DNA of 61,665 nucleotides, counting the filler, from Deltaproteobacteria bacterium (GTDB taxonomy: Bacteria; JAUYMQ01): assembly GCA_030698575.1 (NCBI GenBank). It is 11 parts of 11 records of this genome, joined end to end, with 100 filler letters (N's around TTAATTAATTAA, not from the genome) between each part and the next. Parts side by side here need not be neighbours in the genome. Positions count along the whole stretch, not along the records: positions 32,281 to 35,970 come from JAUYMQ010000608.1; 10 more parts are not named here. The stretch is one strand, 5' to 3'. The notes beneath the pieces are model-generated. The model ran no database searches, had not been told where the DNA came from, and saw only the letters and a list, made by a program, of their open reading frames with translations. The position numbers and the translations under genes are program-made. Numbering within the stretch: position 1 is the stretch's first letter; every line of letters begins with the position of its first letter. This document shows positions 1-56,873 of this stretch, one piece after another.

Positions 1-139
1 CCATTCGCTACTTCGACGAGCTAGGAGTACCCCGGCTCGCCGCGTAACCTCAACCTTTCGAACCGCCGGATGCGGACCCGCATGTCCGGTGGTGTGGGAG
101 GGGAACGGCGGGGCGAACCCCGCCGTCCCCTATCCCGAT
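1..139 (+). mobile_element. 3' end of a group II intron (bacterial class C-like): end of RT/maturase ORF, domain V and domain VI
   Basis: ORF tail IRYFDELGVPRLAA* (3-47). DV-like GAACCGCCGGATGCGGACCCGCATGTCCGGTGGTGTGGGAGGGG at 60-103. DVI hairpin ending CCCCTATCCCGAT at 139. Truncated by the window start. Confidence 0.9.
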
Positions 140-8231: not shown

Positions 8232-8331
8232 NNNNNNNNNNNNNNNNNNNNNNNNNNNNNNNNNNNNNNNNNNNNTTAATTAATTAANNNNNNNNNNNNN
8301 NNNNNNNNNNNNNNNNNNNNNNNNNNNNNNN
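8232..8331. other. Artificial contig linker; identical linkers at 12618-12717, 24422-24521, 28876-28975, 32181-32280, 35971-36070, 38913-39012, 48584-48683, 53860-53959, 56774-56873
   Basis: 100-nt N run containing TTAATTAATTAA (stops in all six frames); genes are truncated at the linkers. Confidence 0.99.
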
Positions 8332-12364: not shown

Positions 12365-12717
12365 TTGGCCACTGAATCGATCGCGCGGCCTTCCCGTGCT
12401 CGGCGGGTCCCGCCCCCGCGCGGCGCAACGGCGGCGCAAGCCCCTCGCGCGCCAGCGAAGGTCGCATGATGGGTGTCAGGGTGCGCGGCGATGCCGGGCG
12501 ACTGGTCGCTGGCGCGCTTCGGGCGCCGCCTTTCGCGCCAAGCGCGCGGGGACTCCCGCCGGGGCGCGGAAAGGCCGCGCCCCCACCCGCCTGTCATTGC
12601 GAGGCGCCCCGGCGGGGNNNNNNNNNNNNNNNNNNNNNNNNNNNNNNNNNNNNNNNNNNNNTTAATTAATTAANNNNNNNNNNNNNNNNNNNNNNNNNNN
12701 NNNNNNNNNNNNNNNNN

Positions 12718-24268: not shown

Positions 24269-24521
24269 GCTCCCACCCCCATTCAGCGGGGCGAGCGCAG
24301 CGGCCGCCCCATTTCCGCGTGAACGCGCGGCAAGGTAGCACCGGGCCCGTGGAGCGTCAAACAAACGGCGGGCCGGGAGAGTTCAGCGCGCGCGCTGCCT
24401 CCTGCAAAAACAACTCCACCTNNNNNNNNNNNNNNNNNNNNNNNNNNNNNNNNNNNNNNNNNNNNTTAATTAATTAANNNNNNNNNNNNNNNNNNNNNNN
24501 NNNNNNNNNNNNNNNNNNNNN

Positions 24522-28875: not shown

Positions 28876-29098
28876 NNNNNNNNNNNNNNNNNNNNNNNNN
28901 NNNNNNNNNNNNNNNNNNNTTAATTAATTAANNNNNNNNNNNNNNNNNNNNNNNNNNNNNNNNNNNNNNNNNNNNCGGTGGACATGGCCGTGACGCTCAC
29001 GCAGGGGCGCACTCAGGTCAAGGCGCAGGTCACCGGCTCGAGTGGAGGCGCGCTCCGCGTGGTCCCCACCGACATCAAGTACCGGGAGCGGGGCGGGA

Positions 29099-31741: not shown

Positions 31742-32180
31742 ATGCCTGACCTCAGCGCCCTGACCGATCCCGGCTTCATCGCCGTGCAGTGCTTGAACGG
31801 GCTGACGCAGGCGATGTTCCTCTTCCTGATCGCTTCGGGTCTCTCGCTTATCTTCGGGGTGCTGGGCGTGCTCAACTTCGCCCACGGTTCGCTCTACATG
31901 CTCGGGGCGTATCTCAGCTACACGGTCGCGTCCCTCTTCGTCGGTTCCCCAGTCGGCTTTTGGCTCGCCCTTGTTCTGGGCTCGGTCGGGGTCGCCCTCC
32001 TGGGTGGGATCGTCGAGTCGGTCTTCCTCAGGCCCGTCTACGGGCGAGAGGAGCTGGATCAGCTCCTCGTGACCTACGCCTTTGTGCTGATCATCGGCGA
32101 TCTCGTCAAGATGGCGTGGGGATCTGACAATCGTTCCGCTTCCCGGCCGTTGCTCCTGGCTGGATCTGTGGACATCGCGG
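31742..32180 (+). CDS. Branched-chain amino acid ABC permease (LivH-like), 3' truncated
   Basis: NGL..., GLSLIFGVLGVLNFAHG. Confidence 0.9.
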
Positions 32181-32280
32181 NNNNNNNNNNNNNNNNNNNN
32201 NNNNNNNNNNNNNNNNNNNNNNNNTTAATTAATTAANNNNNNNNNNNNNNNNNNNNNNNNNNNNNNNNNNNNNNNNNNNN

Positions 32281-32310
32281 AACAAGCTCAAGCTGCAGGG
32301 CCTCGCCTGA
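32281..32310 (+). CDS. Possible 3' tail of a sigma54-dependent activator (Fis-type HTH)
   Basis: Only NKLKLQGLA* is visible; resembles the TLRNKL tail of NtrC-family proteins; sigma54 site lies downstream. Confidence 0.35.
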   Translation, partial: NKLKLQGLA

Positions 32311-32550
32311 TCCCTCCTTCGCGCCACAGCCGCGACAGATGATTGCCGGCTCCTCAGCGCCGCTCCAGGATTGTGCTGACAGACACCGGGAGGGGACGCC
32401 GAACGCGCCGGGTGACGACAAATTGTGTAACTTTCGCCGGCCGCCAGCCCGTCCGCGCGACCCGGGCGCGCGCGCGGGCGGCCGGTATTTTCCTTTTGCT
32501 GCAGCCACTTGCGGCCACTTCACCGCCGAAGCCCGCCCGCCGCCCCTACC

Positions 32551-32566
32551 TGGCACGACACTAGCT
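32551..32566 (+). promoter_or_regulatory. Sigma54 (-24/-12) promoter
   Basis: TGGCACGACACTAGCT = TGGCAC-N5-TAGC, exact GG-N10-GC; palindrome ACAAATTGT at 32418-32426 is a candidate upstream activator site. Confidence 0.7.
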
Positions 32567-32627
32567 TTATCCACTTCTCGGGAACCGCCCGCGCGTCGGG
32601 CGGCCCGGAACAGAAAAGTTGTTCGCA

Positions 32628-32715
32628 CCATCGCAAGAGGGCAAACCATCCGTAAGGGTGGGACGCAAAGTCTCCGGACCTTTCGCCGGGCGAGAGGTTA
32701 GCGGGACTGTCGAGG
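32628..32715 (+). ncRNA. Cyclic dinucleotide riboswitch, c-di-GMP-I (GEMM-I) class
   Basis: GGGCAAACCATCC-GTAA-GGGTGGGACGCAAAGTCTCCGG...GGTTAGCGGGACT; aligns by eye to the Vc2 aptamer with GNRA tetraloop and compensatory P3 pairs. Confidence 0.93.
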
Positions 32716-32732
32716 AAGCGAACCCCGACACG

Positions 32733-32770
32733 GCCCCTTCAGGTGTGATCTCTGGAGGGGCTTCTTTTTT
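32733..32770 (+). terminator. Intrinsic terminator forming the riboswitch expression platform
   Basis: GCCCCTTCAGG/TCTGGAGGGGC stem followed by TTCTTTTTT, upstream of the RBS at about 32780. Confidence 0.85.
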
Positions 32771-32790
32771 GCCCGGTTTGGAGGGAAACC

Positions 32791-33135
32791 ATGGCCAGGA
32801 CGCAATCACGCAGAGAGAAACCCGGAGCCAATCAAACGCTTCGCGGGGCCGCCGACAGAGCGGCGTACCCGGAGCTTCAGGAGCTGCCGCTCACCATGAC
32901 GGCGCCGGCGCACCCCTCTTCGGGGGGCCCGGAGCACGCTCCGCCCCTTCCAGCCTCGGCGGCCAGCGGTGTCTTCGTGCTGGACATCAGTGAGAACCTG
33001 GAGGTTACGGGCAAGTTCATCTGCAAGGTTCCGGTGGGCAACGACGTGCTCCACTGCGGCTGTGGGGGCGTTCTGAGCCAGCGCTTCAACGAATCGCTCT
33101 TCTGCAGGACCTGTGGAAAGGAGGGGTCGCACTGA
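32791..33135 (+). CDS. Small hypothetical protein with C-terminal zinc-ribbon-like Cys motif
   Basis: GGAGGG RBS; CGC...CRTC; directly downstream of the riboswitch. Confidence 0.7.
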   Translation: MARTQSRREKPGANQTLRGAADRAAYPELQELPLTMTAPAHPSSGGPEHAPPLPASAASGVFVLDISENLEVTGKFICKVPVGNDVLHCGCGGVLSQRFNESLFCRTCGKEGSH

Positions 33136-33205
33136 TCGGCCAGGCATCCTGACATCTCCCCGGCTTCGCGCCGGACTTCATCCCCCTCATGAATCATCCG
33201 GCGCG

Positions 33206-33239
33206 AAAAGAAACGCCGCGGCAACCGCCGCGGCGTTTC
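33206..33239 (-). terminator. Terminator between convergent genes (possibly bidirectional)
   Basis: GAAACGCCGCGGC-AACC-GCCGCGGCGTTTC with a T run on the minus strand. Confidence 0.75.
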
Positions 33240-33263
33240 GCTTCAACCTCTGATGGATCGCAC

Positions 33264-33590
33264 TCAGGCGGTCTTGAAGAGGTTCTGAAGCTTCATGGCG
33301 AGGGACATGTCGCCCTTGATCTTGAGCTTCCCGCTCATGAACGCCATCTGTCCGTTGAGCTTGCCGTTCACGAGGTCGAGATAGTCCTTCGACGTCATGG
33401 TGATCGTGATGTTGGGGCTGGCGTGCGTTCCTTCCTTGACCTCGAGAGCGCCGTCCTTGATCTCGTTGTAGAACTGCGCGCCATCGTCGCCCGTGATGTC
33501 GTACTGGTAGATGGCGTTCATGCCCTTGGCGGCCTCGGCATTGAACGACCCAGCCATCCCCGCAATCACTTCCTTGATGGTATCAGGCAT
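33264..33590 (-). CDS. SCP2 sterol/lipid-binding domain protein
   Basis: YQYDITG, GKLNGQMAFMSGKLKIKGDMSLAMKL. Confidence 0.92.
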   Translation of the reverse strand: MPDTIKEVIAGMAGSFNAEAAKGMNAIYQYDITGDDGAQFYNEIKDGALEVKEGTHASPNITITMTSKDYLDLVNGKLNGQMAFMSGKLKIKGDMSLAMKLQNLFKTA

Positions 33591-33938
33591 CTGTCCTCTC
33601 CTCTGATTTGATTTGACGTCGCCTTGGAAGCGACGCGCTGAAACGGAATAGCGTGGCGGATCCCATCCGCCGACTTTCACGGTAAGCGCACACCAGGTTA
33701 CCGCCCGGTCGCCGGGGCGTGCTTCTTGCTGAACGCCCTAAGGGCGCGGACATTATAGGCTGATCGCCCCAAAAGCAAAAGGCCGCCCCAGGAATGGCCT
33801 CTTTTCTGCAGTTGGATGAGGCCTTCCCTGGGCAGCGGGCCGAGGCATCGCGGAGATTACACGCGATCATGCGGGCATATACCCACTCATCCAGCTCAGA
33901 CTTTGCGTAAATCGCGCAAGAATAGCGCGCCCTGCTCC

Positions 33939-35234
33939 TCACGCGTTCCCCAGGGGGCGGAGCTCCCCGCGAACCGTGGGAAGCACATAGGGCCCTTCGG
34001 GAATGACGGCCACGCGCGCCCCTTCTCCATGACGGGCCAGCGCTTCGCTGAGGGCCGCCTCCACGGTCTGCGCGCGGCGCACCAGAGCTTCTCCGAGAAG
34101 CGCCGGCGGAATCCCCTCGCTCACGACCGTCACGCGCGCCTTGCGGAGCACCTGGCAGAGGTGCTGGAGCATCCACTGGTCCGGCACGAAAAATGCCGGA
34201 TCGAAAAGCCGCGTCATGAACCTTTCTGCGCTCTCGGTTTCGGAAAGCAAACGGCTGAAATCCGGACTCCCGAGCCCCTCCGACATCCTCGAGGCGAGGA
34301 TGATGTCGCCTCCAGGGCGAATGATGTTGAGGCAGCCAATCATCCCCTTGATCGACTGGTAGAAAGTGGCGTCGATCGGAAATCCCCCGCCGCTCGTCAC
34401 GGCTACGTCCACCGGTTCGTCAATGCGCCGGATGGTATCCCCCCCGGCCTTCCGCACGCCGGCCATGAAAGCGGCTTCGAGATCCCCGGCGAAGACGCCG
34501 GTCAGCTGCTTCTCGCGATTCACGGTGCAGTTCAGGATGAAATCGGCGCCCGTCCGGCGGGCGATGTCGAGGATGTCCTCGTGAAAGGGATTCCCCTCGA
34601 GAATCCCGTTGCCGATGTTTCCCTCGAGCATCTGCGGCCCGTGCTCGATGCGCAACATGTCGATTGAGGCGAGGCCCGGACAGATGGCCTTTCTTCCCCC
34701 GGAGTATCCCGCCATGAGATGAGGCTCGATGAGCCCCGTGAGGATCTTGAGATCTGCCTCGACGTAGCGGCGATCGATGGCGATGGGGGTTCCCGCAGCC
34801 GACGCTCCGAGCCGTGCGTGGCTCTCACGGTCGCGGCCGTCATGACTTTCGATGCGGTAGCCCTCCGCGATTCCGGACCCGAGCATTTCCCGGAGCTCCG
34901 CCTGCGAAGCAGCCCGGTGAAGCCCAGTGGCCACGAGAATGAGAACGCGGTCCCGGGGGATCCCCGCCGCGTCGAGAATCTCGAGGAGTGGTGGAAGGAG
35001 ATCCCGGTAGGGAATCGGCCGGGTCCGATCGGAGATCACCACGCAGGCGCCAGTGCGCCCCGCGGCAATCCGGGAGAGCGGCCGGCTCCTGATCGGAGCC
35101 TGCAGCGCGGCTGTCACGGCCCCTCGCGGATCCGGAAGCGGGGGGTCAGGAGCAAGACAGATGATCTCGGCAAGGTGCTTGTCCGGGATCTCGACCGGAA
35201 GCCTTCCCGTGCCGTAGGCAAGATCGATGAGCAC
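33939..35234 (-). CDS. larA: Nickel-pincer-dependent lactate racemase family protein
   Basis: SDRTRP, ATGLHR, EPHLMAGYSGGRKAICPG, YQSIKG, PDQW. Confidence 0.85.
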   Translation of the reverse strand: MLIDLAYGTGRLPVEIPDKHLAEIICLAPDPPLPDPRGAVTAALQAPIRSRPLSRIAAGRTGACVVISDRTRPIPYRDLLPPLLEILDAAGIPRDRVLILVATGLHRAASQAELREMLGSGIAEGYRIESHDGRDRESHARLGASAAGTPIAIDRRYVEADLKILTGLIEPHLMAGYSGGRKAICPGLASIDMLRIEHGPQMLEGNIGNGILEGNPFHEDILDIARRTGADFILNCTVNREKQLTGVFAGDLEAAFMAGVRKAGGDTIRRIDEPVDVAVTSGGGFPIDATFYQSIKGMIGCLNIIRPGGDIILASRMSEGLGSPDFSRLLSETESAERFMTRLFDPAFFVPDQWMLQHLCQVLRKARVTVVSEGIPPALLGEALVRRAQTVEAALSEALARHGEGARVAVIPEGPYVLPTVRGELRPLGNA

Positions 35235-35321
35235 CCCGCACCTCTCCGGCAAAATATAAGACAGGAAATCAAACGAACGAAAGCTCAGGATAGCAGAGGC
35301 GGGACATTTCCAGAAAGCAGC

Positions 35322-35970
35322 CTAGTGGAAGTCGGGCTCGCTCACCGTGAAGGAGACGGACTCGCCGACTTCCACCACGACATCGGTACCGGCCATCTGG
35401 AGCGCCACCGATCCGAACTGTATCTCGCCGACGTGAATTCCCTGCACGTCGTCACCCTCTCGCACCTTCCTCGCCGGCCCTTTCCCAATTTTGATCCGCG
35501 CCCACCGGTTCTCGGGCCGCGCGTGGTGAGTGACTTCGGTCACCGTCAGCATCGGGAAATCGGTCTCAATGAGCGGCATCGATTCGGGAGCGGGAGCCGG
35601 GGTGGGAGCGCCCGGGGGCGGTGCGGGGTCCTCCGCGGTGGCGACCCGCGCGGGGACCGCCGGGGGCGCGGGCGCCTCGGGCACCACGCGCGTGATCGGC
35701 CCCGGTCGATTATCGAGCGGGAGGGACGGTGCGGCGGACGGTTCGATCACGGCGACGGGCGCAGCCGGTGCGGGAGCGGGGACTTCAGCGGCAGCATCAG
35801 TGGGAGTATCACCGGGTACCCCAGCTGCGACATCAGCGGGCACAGCCGCCGGCAACGATGGCGCCGGCTCGGGGACAGGGGCCGCAGCGGGAGAAGGCCC
35901 CGGGGCCGGGGCAGCCGCCCCCTCCCCTGCTTCGCTCGCGGACGTGCTCGCCTGAAGGGCCGCGTACTTC
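35322..35970 (-). CDS. Pro/Ala-rich protein with GspB-like C-terminal domain (5' truncated)
   Basis: Long PA linker, then H..PENRWARI..VREGD.V.G..V.EI. Confidence 0.55.
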
Positions 35971-36070
35971 NNNNNNNNNNNNNNNNNNNNNNNNNNNNNN
36001 NNNNNNNNNNNNNNTTAATTAATTAANNNNNNNNNNNNNNNNNNNNNNNNNNNNNNNNNNNNNNNNNNNN

Positions 36071-38912: not shown

Positions 38913-39012
38913 NNNNNNNNNNNNNNNNNNNNNNNNNNNNNNNNNNNNNNNNNNNNTTAATTAATTAANNNNNNNNNNNNNNNNNNNNNNNNNNNNNNNN
39001 NNNNNNNNNNNN

Positions 39013-48583: not shown

Positions 48584-49013
48584 NNNNNNNNNNNNNNNNN
48601 NNNNNNNNNNNNNNNNNNNNNNNNNNNTTAATTAATTAANNNNNNNNNNNNNNNNNNNNNNNNNNNNNNNNNNNNNNNNNNNNCTACGCCCTGTTCCTGG
48701 TCGGCCCCGCCGCCAACGCCGTCGAGATCGCGATCCAGCGAACACGGGCTCGGGCCCGGCCGGCGTCGGCGGCTAGCCCGGATTCATTGGTCATACCTTA
48801 GGGCCCGCGCAAGAATAACTGCGCAGATTTTCGGCGAGCCATTCGGCTTCGGGAAGCCGAGGAGCGACGACGAACGGCATACCCACAGCGGTATGTAGAG
48901 GAGGAGCGACAAAGCTGGCGGAGCCCTTGGCCGTTGAAAAGTGTCCTTCCGGCGAGCGTGCGTGACTGAGCCCCCGGCGGCCCGTAGGCTAGTGAGCGTA
49001 GGAGGTTACGCTC

Positions 49014-49397
49014 ATGGGAGAGTCCGAGGATCTGAGGGCGCTGCAGCGGCGCGTGGAGGGCTGGCGTAGGAATGGGGGCGGTCGGGGGTCGCGGATCCCC
49101 GAGGAGCTGTGGCGCGACGCGGTTGCGGTGGCGCGAACGGCCGGGTTGTACGCGACGGCACGGGCTCTTCGCTTCAACTACGAGCGGCTGAAGAAGCTGG
49201 CGGGCACGATGGAGCCGAGCCCAGGGAAGCGGGCGATGGAGTTCGTCACGCTGCAGATGCCACAGGTGCCGGCCGGGCCCAAGGTGGTGATCGACCTGGC
49301 GGGGCGTGACGGCGAGCAGATGCGCATCGACGTGTCGGGCGGGAGCGCGGTGGACGTTGCGGCGCTGGCGAGCGCGTTCTGGGGGAGGAGGTCGTGA
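49014..49397 (+). CDS. tnpA: IS66 accessory protein TnpA-like (HTH)
   Basis: RIPEELW..AV..A, FV.L; GTGA overlap with tnpB; GGAGG RBS. Confidence 0.75.
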   Translation: MGESEDLRALQRRVEGWRRNGGGRGSRIPEELWRDAVAVARTAGLYATARALRFNYERLKKLAGTMEPSPGKRAMEFVTLQMPQVPAGPKVVIDLAGRDGEQMRIDVSGGSAVDVAALASAFWGRRS

Positions 49398-49762
49398 TCC
49401 AGGTGACCCCCCAGATGCGAATCCTCGTGGCCGTGGAGCCGCAGGACTTCCGGCGCGGGATCGACGGTCTGAGCCGGATCTGTCGAGAGGTGCTCGCAAG
49501 CGACCCGCTCTCCGGCACGATCTTCGTGTTCCGGAGCCGGCGCGGCACGGCGATCCGGCTTCTCTGCTACGACGGCCAGGGGATGTGGCTGGCCCACAAG
49601 CGCCTGTCCGAGGGCAAATTCAGGTACTGGCCAGGACGGAAGGGGGCGGCGGGACACGAACTCCTGGCCCACCAGCTCCAGGTACTGCTGGCGGCGGGCG
49701 ACCCAGACGCGACGAGAGCGGCGCCGCTGTGGAGGCCCATCGCCCAGGCGGCCACGACGTAG
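49394..49762 (+). CDS. tnpB: IS66 accessory protein TnpB
   Basis: DFRRGIDGL, FVFRSRR, L.YDGQG.WL..KRL..GKF..WP. Confidence 0.92.
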   Translation: MIQVTPQMRILVAVEPQDFRRGIDGLSRICREVLASDPLSGTIFVFRSRRGTAIRLLCYDGQGMWLAHKRLSEGKFRYWPGRKGAAGHELLAHQLQVLLAAGDPDATRAAPLWRPIAQAATT

Positions 49763-49801
49763 GGACTTGCGTTCTCTTCCGGAGTTTGGTACCAATGGGG
49801 C

Positions 49802-50677
49802 GTGGACATCGTGCTCCGGTACCGGGGACGCGCCATCAACGCCGCCGACGTGGACGCGATTCGGAGGCTCATCGCGGAGCATCCGAAGGCGAAGCGCCGG
49901 GCCCTGTCGATCCTGCTGTGCGAGGCGTGGTCGTGGCGTCAGGCCAACGGGGCGCTGCGCGACGCAGTGTGCCGGGGCCTCCTGCTGGCGCTGCACCGTG
50001 CCGGTCACATCACGTTGCCGCCCCCGCAGTGCCGAACGGTCCCGAGGTGGAGGCCACCGCAACGAGTCCACGTTCGGCCGGTCCCGCGCGAAGGAAACCT
50101 CGGCGATCTGGGGCCGATCGAGATACGGCAGGTGCGTCGCACCCCCGAGGAGGCGCTGGTCGATTCGCTCATCGACGAGCACCACTACCTCGGCTACGCG
50201 AGGCCTGTCGGCGAGCACCTCAAGTATCTCGTGACGGCGAGCGGCTCGCCGCTGGCCTGCTTCTGCTGGACATCGGCGCCAAGGCATCTCGGACCGAGGG
50301 ACCGGCACATCGGGTGGTCCGCGGAGGCGAGGAAGGCCAACGTCCGTTACGTGGCCTACCAGAGCCGGTTCTTGATCCTGCCGTGGATCCATGTGCCGCT
50401 CTTGGCGTCGCACTTGCTCGGGCGCATGGCGCGGCAGCTCTCCGGCGACTGGGAGCAGCAGTACGCGCACCGGATCTACTTCACCGAGACCTTCGTCGAT
50501 CCGGCACGCTTCCGCGGAACATGCTACAAGGCCGCCAACTGGACGTACCTCGGGATGACGACGGGCCGCGGCAAGGACGCGCCGACGAAGCGGCCCAACC
50601 GGCCGCCGAAGGACGTCTATGGCTACCCGCTGGTGAAGGACTTTCGCCAGAGGCTGGGGCAGATGCCACCGCCATGA
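49802..50677 (+). CDS. DUF4338 / Druantia DruA-like protein (IS cargo)
   Basis: HHYLG, RD..IGW, RFLILPW..P.LASH.L, ETFVD..RF.GTCY.AANW..G.T.GRGK. Confidence 0.85.
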   Translation: MDIVLRYRGRAINAADVDAIRRLIAEHPKAKRRALSILLCEAWSWRQANGALRDAVCRGLLLALHRAGHITLPPPQCRTVPRWRPPQRVHVRPVPREGNLGDLGPIEIRQVRRTPEEALVDSLIDEHHYLGYARPVGEHLKYLVTASGSPLACFCWTSAPRHLGPRDRHIGWSAEARKANVRYVAYQSRFLILPWIHVPLLASHLLGRMARQLSGDWEQQYAHRIYFTETFVDPARFRGTCYKAANWTYLGMTTGRGKDAPTKRPNRPPKDVYGYPLVKDFRQRLGQMPPP

Positions 50678-52479
50678 GCAAGACGCCGGAGGTGGTCGAG
50701 GTGGACATGGCTCAGCTCGAGGGGCTCGTGGATCGCACGAAGGGGATCGTCGTCCCCGAGGACCACGAGCTGATCGAGGGCCTGGTGGGAACGGTCGTGG
50801 CGCTGACGAAGCTCGTGCGGGAGGGGCGAGCGACGCTCGCCCGCATCCGCCACCTGCTCGGTCTCCGGAGCAGCGAGAAGACGGACGATGTCCTGCCCCG
50901 AGGCGGGAAAGGCACGGCAGGGGACTCGGATGCGGGTACCAAGCCAGAGGCGCCCGAGGGGGCGGCGGTGACGGGCATCGATGAGAACGGGGCGACCTCC
51001 CCGACGCCCGATGCCGACAAGCCCCAAGCCCCGGGGCACGGCTGTCTGCCCCTCTCGGCGTACCTCGATCTCTGCCCGATCCGGGTGACGCACGACAAGC
51101 TCCACCCCGGAGACCGATGCCCGCTGTGCGGTCGGGGCAACCTCTTCGAGCTGCGGGAGCCGGCGAAGATCTTGCGAATCCAGGGTCAGCCCCCCCTGGT
51201 GGGGGAGTGCTGGCTCTCTCAGCGACTTCGCTGCAACAGTTGCGGCGCGGTCTTCACGGCGGCCGCGCCCCCCGAGGCGCAGGGTCGGAAGTACAGCGCC
51301 TCGGCCGTGGCCATCATCGCGCTGCTGCGCTACGGCGGGGGGATGCCCCTCTACCGCCTCGAGGGGCTGCAGGGACATATGGGCACCCCGGTCCCGGACG
51401 CCACGATGTGGGATGTCCTGGTCGTGCGAGCGGACGAGATCAAGCCCGTCCTTCAGGAACTGCGCCGCCTGGGGGCCCAGGGGGTCCTCATGCACAACGA
51501 CGACACTTACATGCGCATCCTCGAGTTCATGGGGAAGCGCCGTGCCCGGCTGATCGAGAGCGGAGCGCTTCCCTCTCCCGAACGCACCGGGCTGTTCACG
51601 ACGGGCATCGTGGCGATCTTCGAGAGTCACCCGATCGCGCTCTACATCACCGGCCGTCAGCACGCGGGCGAGAACCTCGCGGATCTCCTGACGGAGCGGG
51701 AGCCCGGGCGCCGACCGCCGATCCAAATGTGCGATGGGCTCGACCGCAACCACCCGAAGGGGCACGAAGTGGTCCCCGCCAACTGCCTGGTCCACGGCCG
51801 CCGGCACGTCGTAGACCAGGTCGAGAGCTTCCCCGAGGAGTGCCGCTACCTGCTCGAGAGGATGAGGGACGTCTTCCGTGTCGACGACCTCTGCCGGAAG
51901 GCGGGCCTCTCGGACGACGAGCGCCTCCATCGCCATCAGCGGGAGAGCGGGCCCATCATGGAGGAGATCCAGCGATGGATGGAGGCCCAGATGGAGGAGA
52001 AGCGCGTCGAGCCCAACTCGGGGCTGGGCGCCGCGATCAGGTACCTGCTCAAGCGCTGGGACAAGCTCACCCTCTTCCTGCGCGTTCCCGGAGCCCCCCT
52101 GGAAAACAACCTCGTGGAGAGGGCGCTCAAGCGAGCGATCCGCCACCGAAAGAACAGTCTCTTCTACTTCAACGCGCGTGGTGCAGAGGTGGGCGACCTG
52201 TACATGACGCTCATCCACACGACGGAGCTCAATGGCGGCAACGCCTTCCACTACCTGACCGAGCTGATGCGGCACGCGAAGGCCGCGTCCGAGAGGCCCG
52301 GCGACTGGCTGCCCTGGACCTATCTCGAGACTCTGGCCCGCTTGCAGGCCGCAAATGCAGCCCCCGCGCAGAGCACGTCGCCTACGCCTCCACCCCCACA
52401 CCCCCGGCCCGTGAAGCCTCGTAGGCGACCCCTCGCAGGTAAGCCGGCCGCCGAGCCACATCAGCCGCACGCTCCGTAG
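50674..52479 (+). CDS. tnpC: IS66 DDE transposase TnpC
   Basis: SSEK, CPLC..C.SC zinc finger, DDT, CDG, C.VHGRR, ENN..ERALK...RKNSLF; ATGA overlap with DUF4338. Confidence 0.92.
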   Translation: MSKTPEVVEVDMAQLEGLVDRTKGIVVPEDHELIEGLVGTVVALTKLVREGRATLARIRHLLGLRSSEKTDDVLPRGGKGTAGDSDAGTKPEAPEGAAVTGIDENGATSPTPDADKPQAPGHGCLPLSAYLDLCPIRVTHDKLHPGDRCPLCGRGNLFELREPAKILRIQGQPPLVGECWLSQRLRCNSCGAVFTAAAPPEAQGRKYSASAVAIIALLRYGGGMPLYRLEGLQGHMGTPVPDATMWDVLVVRADEIKPVLQELRRLGAQGVLMHNDDTYMRILEFMGKRRARLIESGALPSPERTGLFTTGIVAIFESHPIALYITGRQHAGENLADLLTEREPGRRPPIQMCDGLDRNHPKGHEVVPANCLVHGRRHVVDQVESFPEECRYLLERMRDVFRVDDLCRKAGLSDDERLHRHQRESGPIMEEIQRWMEAQMEEKRVEPNSGLGAAIRYLLKRWDKLTLFLRVPGAPLENNLVERALKRAIRHRKNSLFYFNARGAEVGDLYMTLIHTTELNGGNAFHYLTELMRHAKAASERPGDWLPWTYLETLARLQAANAAPAQSTSPTPPPPHPRPVKPRRRPLAGKPAAEPHQPHAP

Positions 52480-53669: not shown

Positions 53670-53959
53670 AAAAGGAGCCCCACGTGAGACCCACGAGAGA
53701 TCCCCCTTGACAACAGTGGCCCTCATAGGAGCACTAGCCGGTCTGGGAGGTATGTTGCTCCACGTAGGTCCGGATGGTCTCGGCCTCGGCCGCCCCGAGC
53801 GGCTCGAATTGCACCCCGATCCAGTACTGACCGTCACTCTCCTCGGAGGGGGCGCACCANNNNNNNNNNNNNNNNNNNNNNNNNNNNNNNNNNNNNNNNN
53901 NNNTTAATTAATTAANNNNNNNNNNNNNNNNNNNNNNNNNNNNNNNNNNNNNNNNNNNN

Positions 53960-56773: not shown

Positions 56774-56873
56774 NNNNNNNNNNNNNNNNNNNNNNNNNNN
56801 NNNNNNNNNNNNNNNNNTTAATTAATTAANNNNNNNNNNNNNNNNNNNNNNNNNNNNNNNNNNNNNNNNNNNN

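Follow-up and report, generated by a model that had tools for sequence, protein, structure and literature searches.

A natural GEMM-I riboswitch with U at the ligand-pairing position 92 upstream of a gene encoding a cysteine-rich protein in a deltaproteobacterial genome bin

Introduction

In the Vc2 riboswitch of Vibrio cholerae (GEMM-I), G20 is described as pairing with the alpha guanine of the ligand and C92 with the beta guanine (excerpt of PMC6140456), and the contact of one ligand guanine with C92 is also given in the excerpted text of PMC11705072. A GEMM-I aptamer within the window, by which we mean the whole 61.7-kb (61,665 nt) stretch of Deltaproteobacteria bacterium DNA analysed here, has U at the place of C92 and G at the place of G20. 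The initial annotation of this locus suggested an altered specificity, with U92 reading an adenine of 3',3'-cGAMP, or else a low-affinity sensor of c-di-GMP. The question is which ligand this riboswitch reads, whether its U is a real and conserved base, and how the aptamer might control the gene that follows it.

Results and discussion

Aptamer identity and register

The locus is a genuine member of the class-I cyclic-di-GMP riboswitches. Rfam cmscan matched positions 32630-32714 to RF01051 (c-di-GMP-I) with 60.6 bits (E 2.1e-9; the curated gathering threshold is 35 bits) over model positions 1-87 of 87, with every model pair standard (zero 'v' marks) and with a posterior probability of '*' along the entire 3' end of the alignment. 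The same aptamer scored 75 bits under R1, a custom covariance model built from the window's aptamer and the 30 best RF01051 matches among 151 sampled genomes of one phylum. The P2 tetraloop is GUAA (GNRA-like), C32664 and G32701 fill the C44 and G83 columns of the interhelical pair, and the P3 closure AGUCUC/GGGACU described at the outset is correct, though Rfam bulges U32673. The Rfam model does not extend to the P1 helix and includes none of its pairs; in constrained folds this helix is formed by 11 pairs (32621-26/32718-23, 32628-29/32714-15 and 32631-33/32711-13) with a small internal loop. The pairs next to the junction are G32633:C32711, then C32632:G32712 and U32631:A32713, and P1 closes the junction directly 3' of position 92.

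In the RF01051 alignment G32640 occupies column 11, A32667 column 38, and U32708, G32709, U32710 and C32711 columns 81, 82, 83 and 84. The pairs given for Vc2 in the excerpted text of PMC11705072 (G21-C46, C22-G45, G50-U89, G88-C51, U90-A48, G14-C93, C13-G94 and A12-U96) make column 37 the equivalent of C46, column 38 of A47, column 41 of G50, column 81 of U90 and column 83 of C92. In two other papers C92 is assigned to J3/1, and P1 is said to be closed by G14-C93 (PMC5049679, PMC3764141). Together, these descriptions define C92 as the second base past the last P3 base, just 5' of P1, which is position 32710, and U32710 does sit there, flanked by the final pair of P3 and by C32711:G32633, with which P1 begins. 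The register is clear, because column 83 of our own covariance-model alignments holds C in 155 of the 162 other aptamers and U in the remaining 7. The initial placement of U32710 at C92 and of G32640 at G20 was confirmed in this way: it is U32710, not C32711, that the Rfam alignment places at Vc2 position 92. The Watson-Crick partner C92 is replaced by U here, as it is in those 7 of 162 family members, so that C92 is typical of the family but not defining for membership, and its replacement bears on the ligand instead. The features of the locus are listed in Table 1.

Table 1. Features of the riboswitch locus and joints of the window (positions along the window)
Feature	Position	Strand	Description and basis
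P1 5' strand	32621..32633	+	GUUCGC, CC and UCG, with A32627 and A32630 unpaired; constrained folds
GEMM-I (c-di-GMP-I, RF01051) aptamer	32630..32714	+	cmscan (60.6 bits) and R1 (75 bits)
G at the Vc2 G20 position	32640	+	reads ligand base alpha; column 11, G 127 / A 35 in 162 others
A at the Vc2 A47 position	32667	+	intercalates between both ligand bases; column 38, A in 163/163, window included
Alternative hairpin H	32709..32729	+	GUCG/CGAC (32709-12/32726-29) plus GG/CC, pairing U32710 with A32728; predicted in minimum-free-energy folds
U at the Vc2 C92 position	32710	+	pairs with ligand base beta; column 83, C 155 / U 7 in 162
P1 3' strand	32711..32723	+	C32711:G32633 equivalent to Vc2 C93-G14; constrained folds
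Intrinsic terminator	32732..32772	+	12-bp stem, 7-nt loop, then UCUUUUUUGC; hairpin -19.8 kcal/mol; terminator scan
Candidate antiterminator partner of 32623-32642	32733..32748	+	terminator 5' arm and loop; predicted in minimum-free-energy fold
Regulated gene, 114-aa protein	32791..33135	+	GGAGG 6 nt before ATG; disordered N-terminus, Cys-rich C-terminal domain
Joints	8232-8331, 12618-12717, 24422-24521, 28876-28975, 32181-32280, 35971-36070, 38913-39012, 48584-48683, 53860-53959, 56774-56873		each 44 N, TTAATTAATTAA, 44 N

Reality and conservation of the U

Support for the base at 32710 was assessed on assembled Logan contigs. A 736-nt contig from run X1 (groundwater, in all likelihood the sample from which the window derives) spans 32450-32753, and a 4834-nt contig of about 91% identity from run X5, a cave metagenome belonging to a different study, spans 32476-33200; neither has a difference listed at 32710. 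Runs X2 and X3 aligned only to the core 32638-32677 (other GEMM-I copies) or to part of the gene and are uninformative on this base. The X5 contig differs from 32476-33200 by 63 substitutions and 3 indels. The listed differences include 18 in 32512-32608 and 21 in 32768-32973, and 23 further rows seem, from the table order, to fall beyond 32973, whereas within 32609-32767 the only ones listed are 32653 T>A, at a position where many unrelated GEMM-I contigs also align, and a 1-nt deletion in the terminator loop, which is the sole difference listed in the terminator. Judged by these listed differences, the aptamer and terminator are near-invariant in the X5 relative, with flanks that differ at about 10-18% of places.

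The base could also be read from a protein record. P0008, a 167-aa orthologue with 42% identity to the protein encoded in the window (alignment A6), has its start called at an upstream GTG, and its N-terminus, MGRKVSGPLRCGEVSGTVEKANP, is the aptamer translated in the frame of window positions 32658-32726, which gives VGRKVSGPFAGREVSGTVEEANP; the pattern GRKVSGP...EVSGTVE.ANP of this frame is retained. Codon 32709-32711 is GUC (Val), and Val stands at the same place in P0008, which means G-U-N and thus U at position 92, since C there would give Ala. Residues 1-45 of P0008 and the N-termini of P0009, P0010 and P0014 are translated riboswitch, terminator and ribosome-binding site, the starts having been called upstream of the true ATG. 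Such misplaced starts make the nucleotides of an unseen locus readable from a protein record.

The agreement of two independent assemblies at the contig level, together with the Val codon of P0008, upholds the initial view that U32710 is a real base and not a miscall. By these comparisons U92 is retained in three lineages of the orthologous switch, and the conservation of 32609-32767 in X5 and of the aptamer frame in P0008 indicates that the switch is under selection. That the aptamer is decaying or non-functional, or that 32710 is a sequencing or assembly error, is very improbable. The majority state of position 92 is C (155/162) and the base support consists of assembled contigs rather than raw reads, which leaves this explanation some room, but it is opposed by the high score over the full RF01051 model, by the conservation of aptamer and terminator in the X5 relative despite the divergence of the flanks, by the U in an orthologue as distant as P0008, and by the intact and conserved downstream gene.

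Distribution of U92

Aligned with R1 were 150 listed matches (64 further matches being left out), 11 matches from five related genome bins and extra copies in flanks. Among the 162 aptamers besides the window's, the counts are 127 G and 35 A for position 20 and 155 C and 7 U for position 92; the combinations at positions 20/92 are G/C (120), A/C (35) and G/U (7), with A20/U92 absent (0/162). A metagenome pattern scan allowing C or T at position 92 yielded at least 119 matching stretches, and the 80 loci listed, a non-random sample, comprise 78 with C and 2 with T.

The seven U92 copies of the 162-aptamer set come from four of the 60 genomes. When all copies in these four were counted, the result was G/C 5, G/U 3 and A/C 15 for G140; G/C 2, G/U 3 and A/C 9 for G071; G/C 0, G/U 1 and A/C 7 for G107; and G/C 4, G/U 1 and A/C 0 for G002. 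The first three are dominated by A20 (15/23, 9/14 and 7/8 copies, respectively), and U92 is found in 7 of their 14 G20 copies, compared with 1 of the 117 in other genomes (Fisher p 2e-7, a value that overstates independence because both the genomes and the riboswitches are related). One U92 aptamer was matched by BLAST in 43 of the 87 genomes of the family to which G140 belongs.

In a short-P3 subfamily (alignment A7), represented by 32 model matches across the 30 loci retrieved with that aptamer (L388-L417), the counts are G/U 16, G/C 11, G/A 3 and A/C 2, so U92 is the commonest state there, alternating with C among close relatives. The members with A92 are L411, L408 and L401, two of the three scoring weakly; we know of no description of an A92 GEMM-I pocket. 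The counts in the phylum sample, the metagenome scan and the short-P3 subfamily make U92 a recurrent natural state. The survey of homologues proposed initially thus did return further natural G20/U92 aptamers (7/162, 2/80 listed and 16/32), and the rarity that had been implied for this combination does not hold.

Expression platform

The terminator scan of 32000-33200 found a single terminator-like site, the 12-bp hairpin at 32732-32762 with UCUUUUUUGC behind it. No sigma-70-like promoter was found at the locus by scan. For RNA ending at 32750, the predicted minimum-free-energy structure, obtained from three different 5' starts, joins 32623-32642 to 32733-32748, and the former segment contains the P1 5' strand, J1/2, G20, G21 and C22. 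At this nascent length the antiterminator fold was calculated at -58.7 kcal/mol versus -49.8 kcal/mol with the aptamer (P1) enforced, i.e. 8.9 kcal/mol better, and at full length the terminator fold was calculated at -68.0 versus -59.8 kcal/mol. In these models the fold energy gap would be about the energy of nanomolar binding. The candidate antiterminator duplex (-20.4 kcal/mol) is equalled in 7 of 1000 dinucleotide shuffles and in 41 of 454 natural 31-nt windows nearby, which are GC-rich, and it is not statistically special against these natural surroundings.

The 3' tail of the aptamer has an alternative of its own, hairpin H, which excludes P1. The complementarity of TGTCG (32708-32712) and CGACA (32726-32730) noted initially is exact, the two being reverse complements, and their pairing is part of this hairpin. 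Hairpin H alone was calculated at -8.1 kcal/mol, and at -3.0 kcal/mol with 32710 read as C.

Two other antiterminators were considered and rejected. Pairing of the P1 3' strand with the terminator 5' arm gave only -6.4 kcal/mol; pairing of the same strand with the 3' arm and U tract gave -16.2 kcal/mol, but this partner emerges too late to compete.

According to the proposed mechanism, the ligand-free RNA would pair the aptamer's 5' half (P1 5' strand, J1/2 and G20-G21-C22) with the terminator 5' arm and fold its 3' tail, U32710 included, into hairpin H, and RNA polymerase would read through into the gene. Bound ligand would lock P1 and the junction, allowing the terminator to form and turning the gene off. 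Ligand binding is, therefore, modelled as a signal that probably switches expression OFF, and the folds are in modest agreement with a kinetic OFF switch in which the energy of ligand binding tips the balance.

The participation of U32710 in hairpin H opens another explanation for its conservation: U92 might be kept mainly for the expression platform, where U32710:A32728 competes with P1, the aptamer tolerating U with its ligand unchanged. Hairpin H is present in all minimum-free-energy folds, and about 5 kcal/mol is lost with C at 32710. On the other hand, the codons that follow ANP in P0008 differ (T-L-P versus D-T-A), so that CGACA may be lost there while U stays; unrelated switches whose platforms differ from this one also carry U92; and the duplex search in 32 relatives showed no consistent partner of position 92. 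As the main reason for U92 this explanation is improbable. It is compatible with the reading preferred below, in which c-di-GMP is bound with lower affinity, and both may well apply together.

Terminator-like hairpins also lie downstream of the aptamer in all eight other natural U92 switches examined. A duplex search across 32 related aptamers for a shared downstream partner of position 92 returned only scattered sites and no usable covariation. In several U92 relatives (L394, L396 and L407) the sequence UUUGAC(R)G, located in the terminator loop and 3' arm, complements the aptamer tail C(Y)GUCGAA including position 92, which hints that the aptamer tail may take part in switching.

Regulated gene and its contig

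The 114-aa protein encoded downstream has a conserved part, its last 55 residues, in which C78, C89, C91, C105 and C108 are invariant in the alignment of homologues. It matched no Pfam family. Four matches, its own included, were found in an index of 5.8 billion proteins, and 13 cluster representatives among 1.84 billion. The AlphaFold model is poor (mean pLDDT 52.6), and the atlas search with the protein produced only zinc-ribbon-like leads below the search's own bar. Searches for orthologous loci gave 420 pattern-matching stretches in genome contigs (with the 114-aa protein as query) and 171 in metagenome contigs (with alignment A1 as query), none of which was confirmed.

The riboswitch lies on a contig of 3690 nt (32281-35970). 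On this contig two convergent genes are present: an ORF at 33264-33680 (-) that might be read as SCP2-like from its sequence alone, and a LarA-like gene (Lar_N/LarA_C) at 33939-35252 (-). The window strings together separate contigs of a genome bin at ten joints (Table 1), so the gene neighbourhood across these joints is not real. Elsewhere in the window there are an Rfam Intron_gpII match (group II intron domains V/VI) at 61-139 (+), with 40.6 bits against a cut-off of 40, and, at 49306-52479 (+), a long ORF encoding an IS66-family transposase domain. DNA polymerase I, encoded on another contig of the window, reached no more than 52% identity in its matches, which belong to Syntrophaceae and Syntrophobacterales genome bins; this distance is too great to assign the organism, and the result depends on the contigs having been binned together correctly.

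Ligand

The explanation that we favour, with moderate confidence, is a functional, transcription-terminating GEMM-I switch in the leader of the gene for the Cys-rich protein, which binds c-di-GMP through a G·U wobble with lower affinity and acts as an OFF switch. The ligand would most likely be c-di-GMP with G-beta held by the wobble pair at U92, and the resulting sensor would bind more weakly, and respond at a higher threshold, than a switch with C92. A chromosomal C92U mutation in V. cholerae is reported to lower the Vc2-dependent sRNA 30-fold, with partial restoration by over-expression of a diguanylate cyclase, which in the authors' view fits an affinity that is reduced but not lost (excerpt of 10.1101/617340). 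Structures of C92U Vc2 are available as 3MUR, 3UD3 and 3UD4 in a table of PMC10671752, and the crystallisation of C92U complexes with c-di-GMP counts for this ligand. A47 is conserved in all members of the class, G20 and C92 less so, according to the part of PMC9049102 that deals with these bases.

The genes behind other U92 switches bear on the same question. The first genes after the eight switches encode a REC-GGDEF protein, a PilZ protein, a polysaccharide-synthesis membrane protein, a multi-PAS sensor, a secreted FlgD_ig/PKD protein, an IS transposase and two proteins without a family. GGDEF, PilZ and polysaccharide-synthesis genes are classical c-di-GMP themes, and their occurrence downstream of 3 of the 8 switches was counted for c-di-GMP. 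The GGDEF protein behind one of them has Asp in its GHxxGD motif, which we take to be the mark of an ordinary diguanylate cyclase and not of the cGAMP-making Hypr type. The alternation of U and C at position 92 among related species is the pattern expected if both bases serve one ligand. In work by Smith and colleagues from 2010, C92U Vc2 reportedly had a Kd for c-di-GMP in the low nanomolar range, versus 0.011 nM for the wild type; G20A and C92U are also said to be the commonest natural variants in that work, C92U binding with low-nanomolar affinity via a G·U wobble.

Two points argue against a preference for c-di-GMP. A U at position 92 should favour adenine (Watson-Crick) at least as much as guanine (wobble), and U92 is enriched where A20 copies, i.e. 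those of the cGAMP type, abound (7/14 versus 1/117). The rival reading is that of a mirror-orientation sensor of 3',3'-cGAMP or, with dual specificity, of both cGAMP and c-di-GMP, in which G20 would read guanine by its Hoogsteen face and U92 would form a Watson-Crick pair with adenine. In GEMM-Ib aptamers A20 reads A and C92 reads G, and the orientation modelled for the window would be the opposite. The initial premise that U at 92 could pair with adenine is sound in principle, and sensing of cGAMP in the mirror orientation is chemically reasonable; we regard it as an unlikely, though serious, candidate for this switch.

Structural and binding data give the mirror orientation some footing. C92U Vc2 has been crystallised with further ligands (3UD3 and 3UD4; table of PMC10671752), and wild-type Vc2 is reported to bind cGAMP with a Kd of 10 uM by ITC, whereas G20A by itself turns it into a bispecific aptamer (120 nM for cGAMP, 53 nM for c-di-GMP; excerpt of PMC6140456). 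One pocket base can therefore reset specificity. The distribution of U92 could be read the same way, as it is concentrated in the three A20-dominated genomes and as the short-P3 subfamily also has A20/C92 and A92 members, as if its pocket were diversifying. The further ligands in 3UD3 and 3UD4 are presumably A-containing linear analogues.

The enrichment of U92 in A20-rich genomes is, however, weak support for mirror cGAMP sensing. It comes from a single clade and from a small number of orthologous riboswitch families, and thus reflects few independent events, and among 12 other genomes with A20 there are four (G010, G054, G128 and G146) that hold 17 G20 copies with zero U92. The alternation of U and C among close relatives also speaks against it. 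The gene contexts resemble c-di-GMP regulons and not the cytochrome/pilus regulon given for GEMM-Ib in the excerpted text of PMC6456294. Within the 61.7-kb window of separate contigs there was no sign of cGAMP production by the organism, the motif scan finding no GGDEF-motif ORF of at least 120 aa. The low-affinity c-di-GMP alternative of the initial annotation is, on this evidence, better supported than an altered specificity.

If the mirror reading were true, natural G20/U92 GEMM-I aptamers, including that of the window, would constitute a further class of riboswitches for 3',3'-cGAMP (or for both cGAMP and c-di-GMP), the mirror image of the first. Such a class, whose existence we consider doubtful, would explain the clustering in A20-dominated genomes and the G/U, G/C, A/C and G/A pocket variation within one subfamily. 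No treatment of a natural G20/U92 aptamer was found in the accessible full-text literature, a set outside which the key structural and variant studies fall.

Comparison with known riboswitches

The scaffold of the window's aptamer is that of Vc2, with P2 and its tetraloop, P3, the C44-G83-type pair (C32664/G32701), A47, G20 and a P1 closing on a G-C pair. It differs in having a J1/2 of 6 nt (5 nt in Vc2) and an 11-bp P1 with an internal loop. The platform in the window is an intrinsic terminator, whereas Vc2 is reported to be insufficient for termination in vitro (excerpt of 10.1101/617340), and Vc2 controls tfoY, whereas the window's switch precedes the gene of a Cys-rich protein of unrecognised family. 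The pocket is the natural equivalent of the engineered C92U mutant of Vc2 (3MUR), with the difference that U92 of the window is natural and conserved in orthologues.

The GEMM-Ib riboswitches of Geobacter that sense 3',3'-cGAMP (e.g. Gs1761/pgcA, 4YAZ) share the scaffold of the window's switch. Their specificity is reset by one pocket base and their control is transcriptional, by a terminator, as would be the case here too. Their pocket is A20/C92 and that of the window G20/U92, with G32640 in place of the A20 of GEMM-Ib. They are described as ON switches before cytochrome, pilus and polysaccharide genes (excerpt of PMC6456294), whereas the window's switch is modelled as OFF and precedes an unrelated gene. 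The engineered Vc2 double mutant G20A/C92U (3MUT, 3MUV) shares U92 with the window and binds c-di-AMP (PMC7288161), while its binding of c-di-GMP is given as 4900 nM versus 0.011 nM for the wild type in the excerpted text of PMC9049102; the mutant needs A20 as well to bind c-di-AMP, and the window has G20. Since A20/U92 was also found in 0 of 162 natural aptamers, c-di-AMP is an unlikely ligand here.

Pocket variants of this class have already been mined, as indicated by the Rfam variant families c-di-GMP-I-GGC and c-di-GMP-I-UAU (PMC12452182). Both are GEMM-I look-alikes with changed pocket bases, and the window's aptamer was assigned by cmscan to the parent family. The letters in these names presumably denote positions 20/47/92, and the window would then be of the type 'GAU'.

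The riboswitch described here belongs to a well-known class, in which it represents a pocket variant that is natural and recurrent; an engineered counterpart of this variant was studied earlier. If U92 merely weakens the binding of c-di-GMP, it would be another case of a threshold being set by a single pocket base. If instead it is true that U92 turns the pocket to adenine, a few per cent of the riboswitches annotated as "c-di-GMP-I" would be mis-assigned, half of the non-A20 copies in one clade would be affected, and cGAMP signalling would extend beyond the A20 rule. The 114-aa Cys-rich protein represents a very small unannotated family, for which the cyclic-dinucleotide switch upstream of its gene is the only functional clue.
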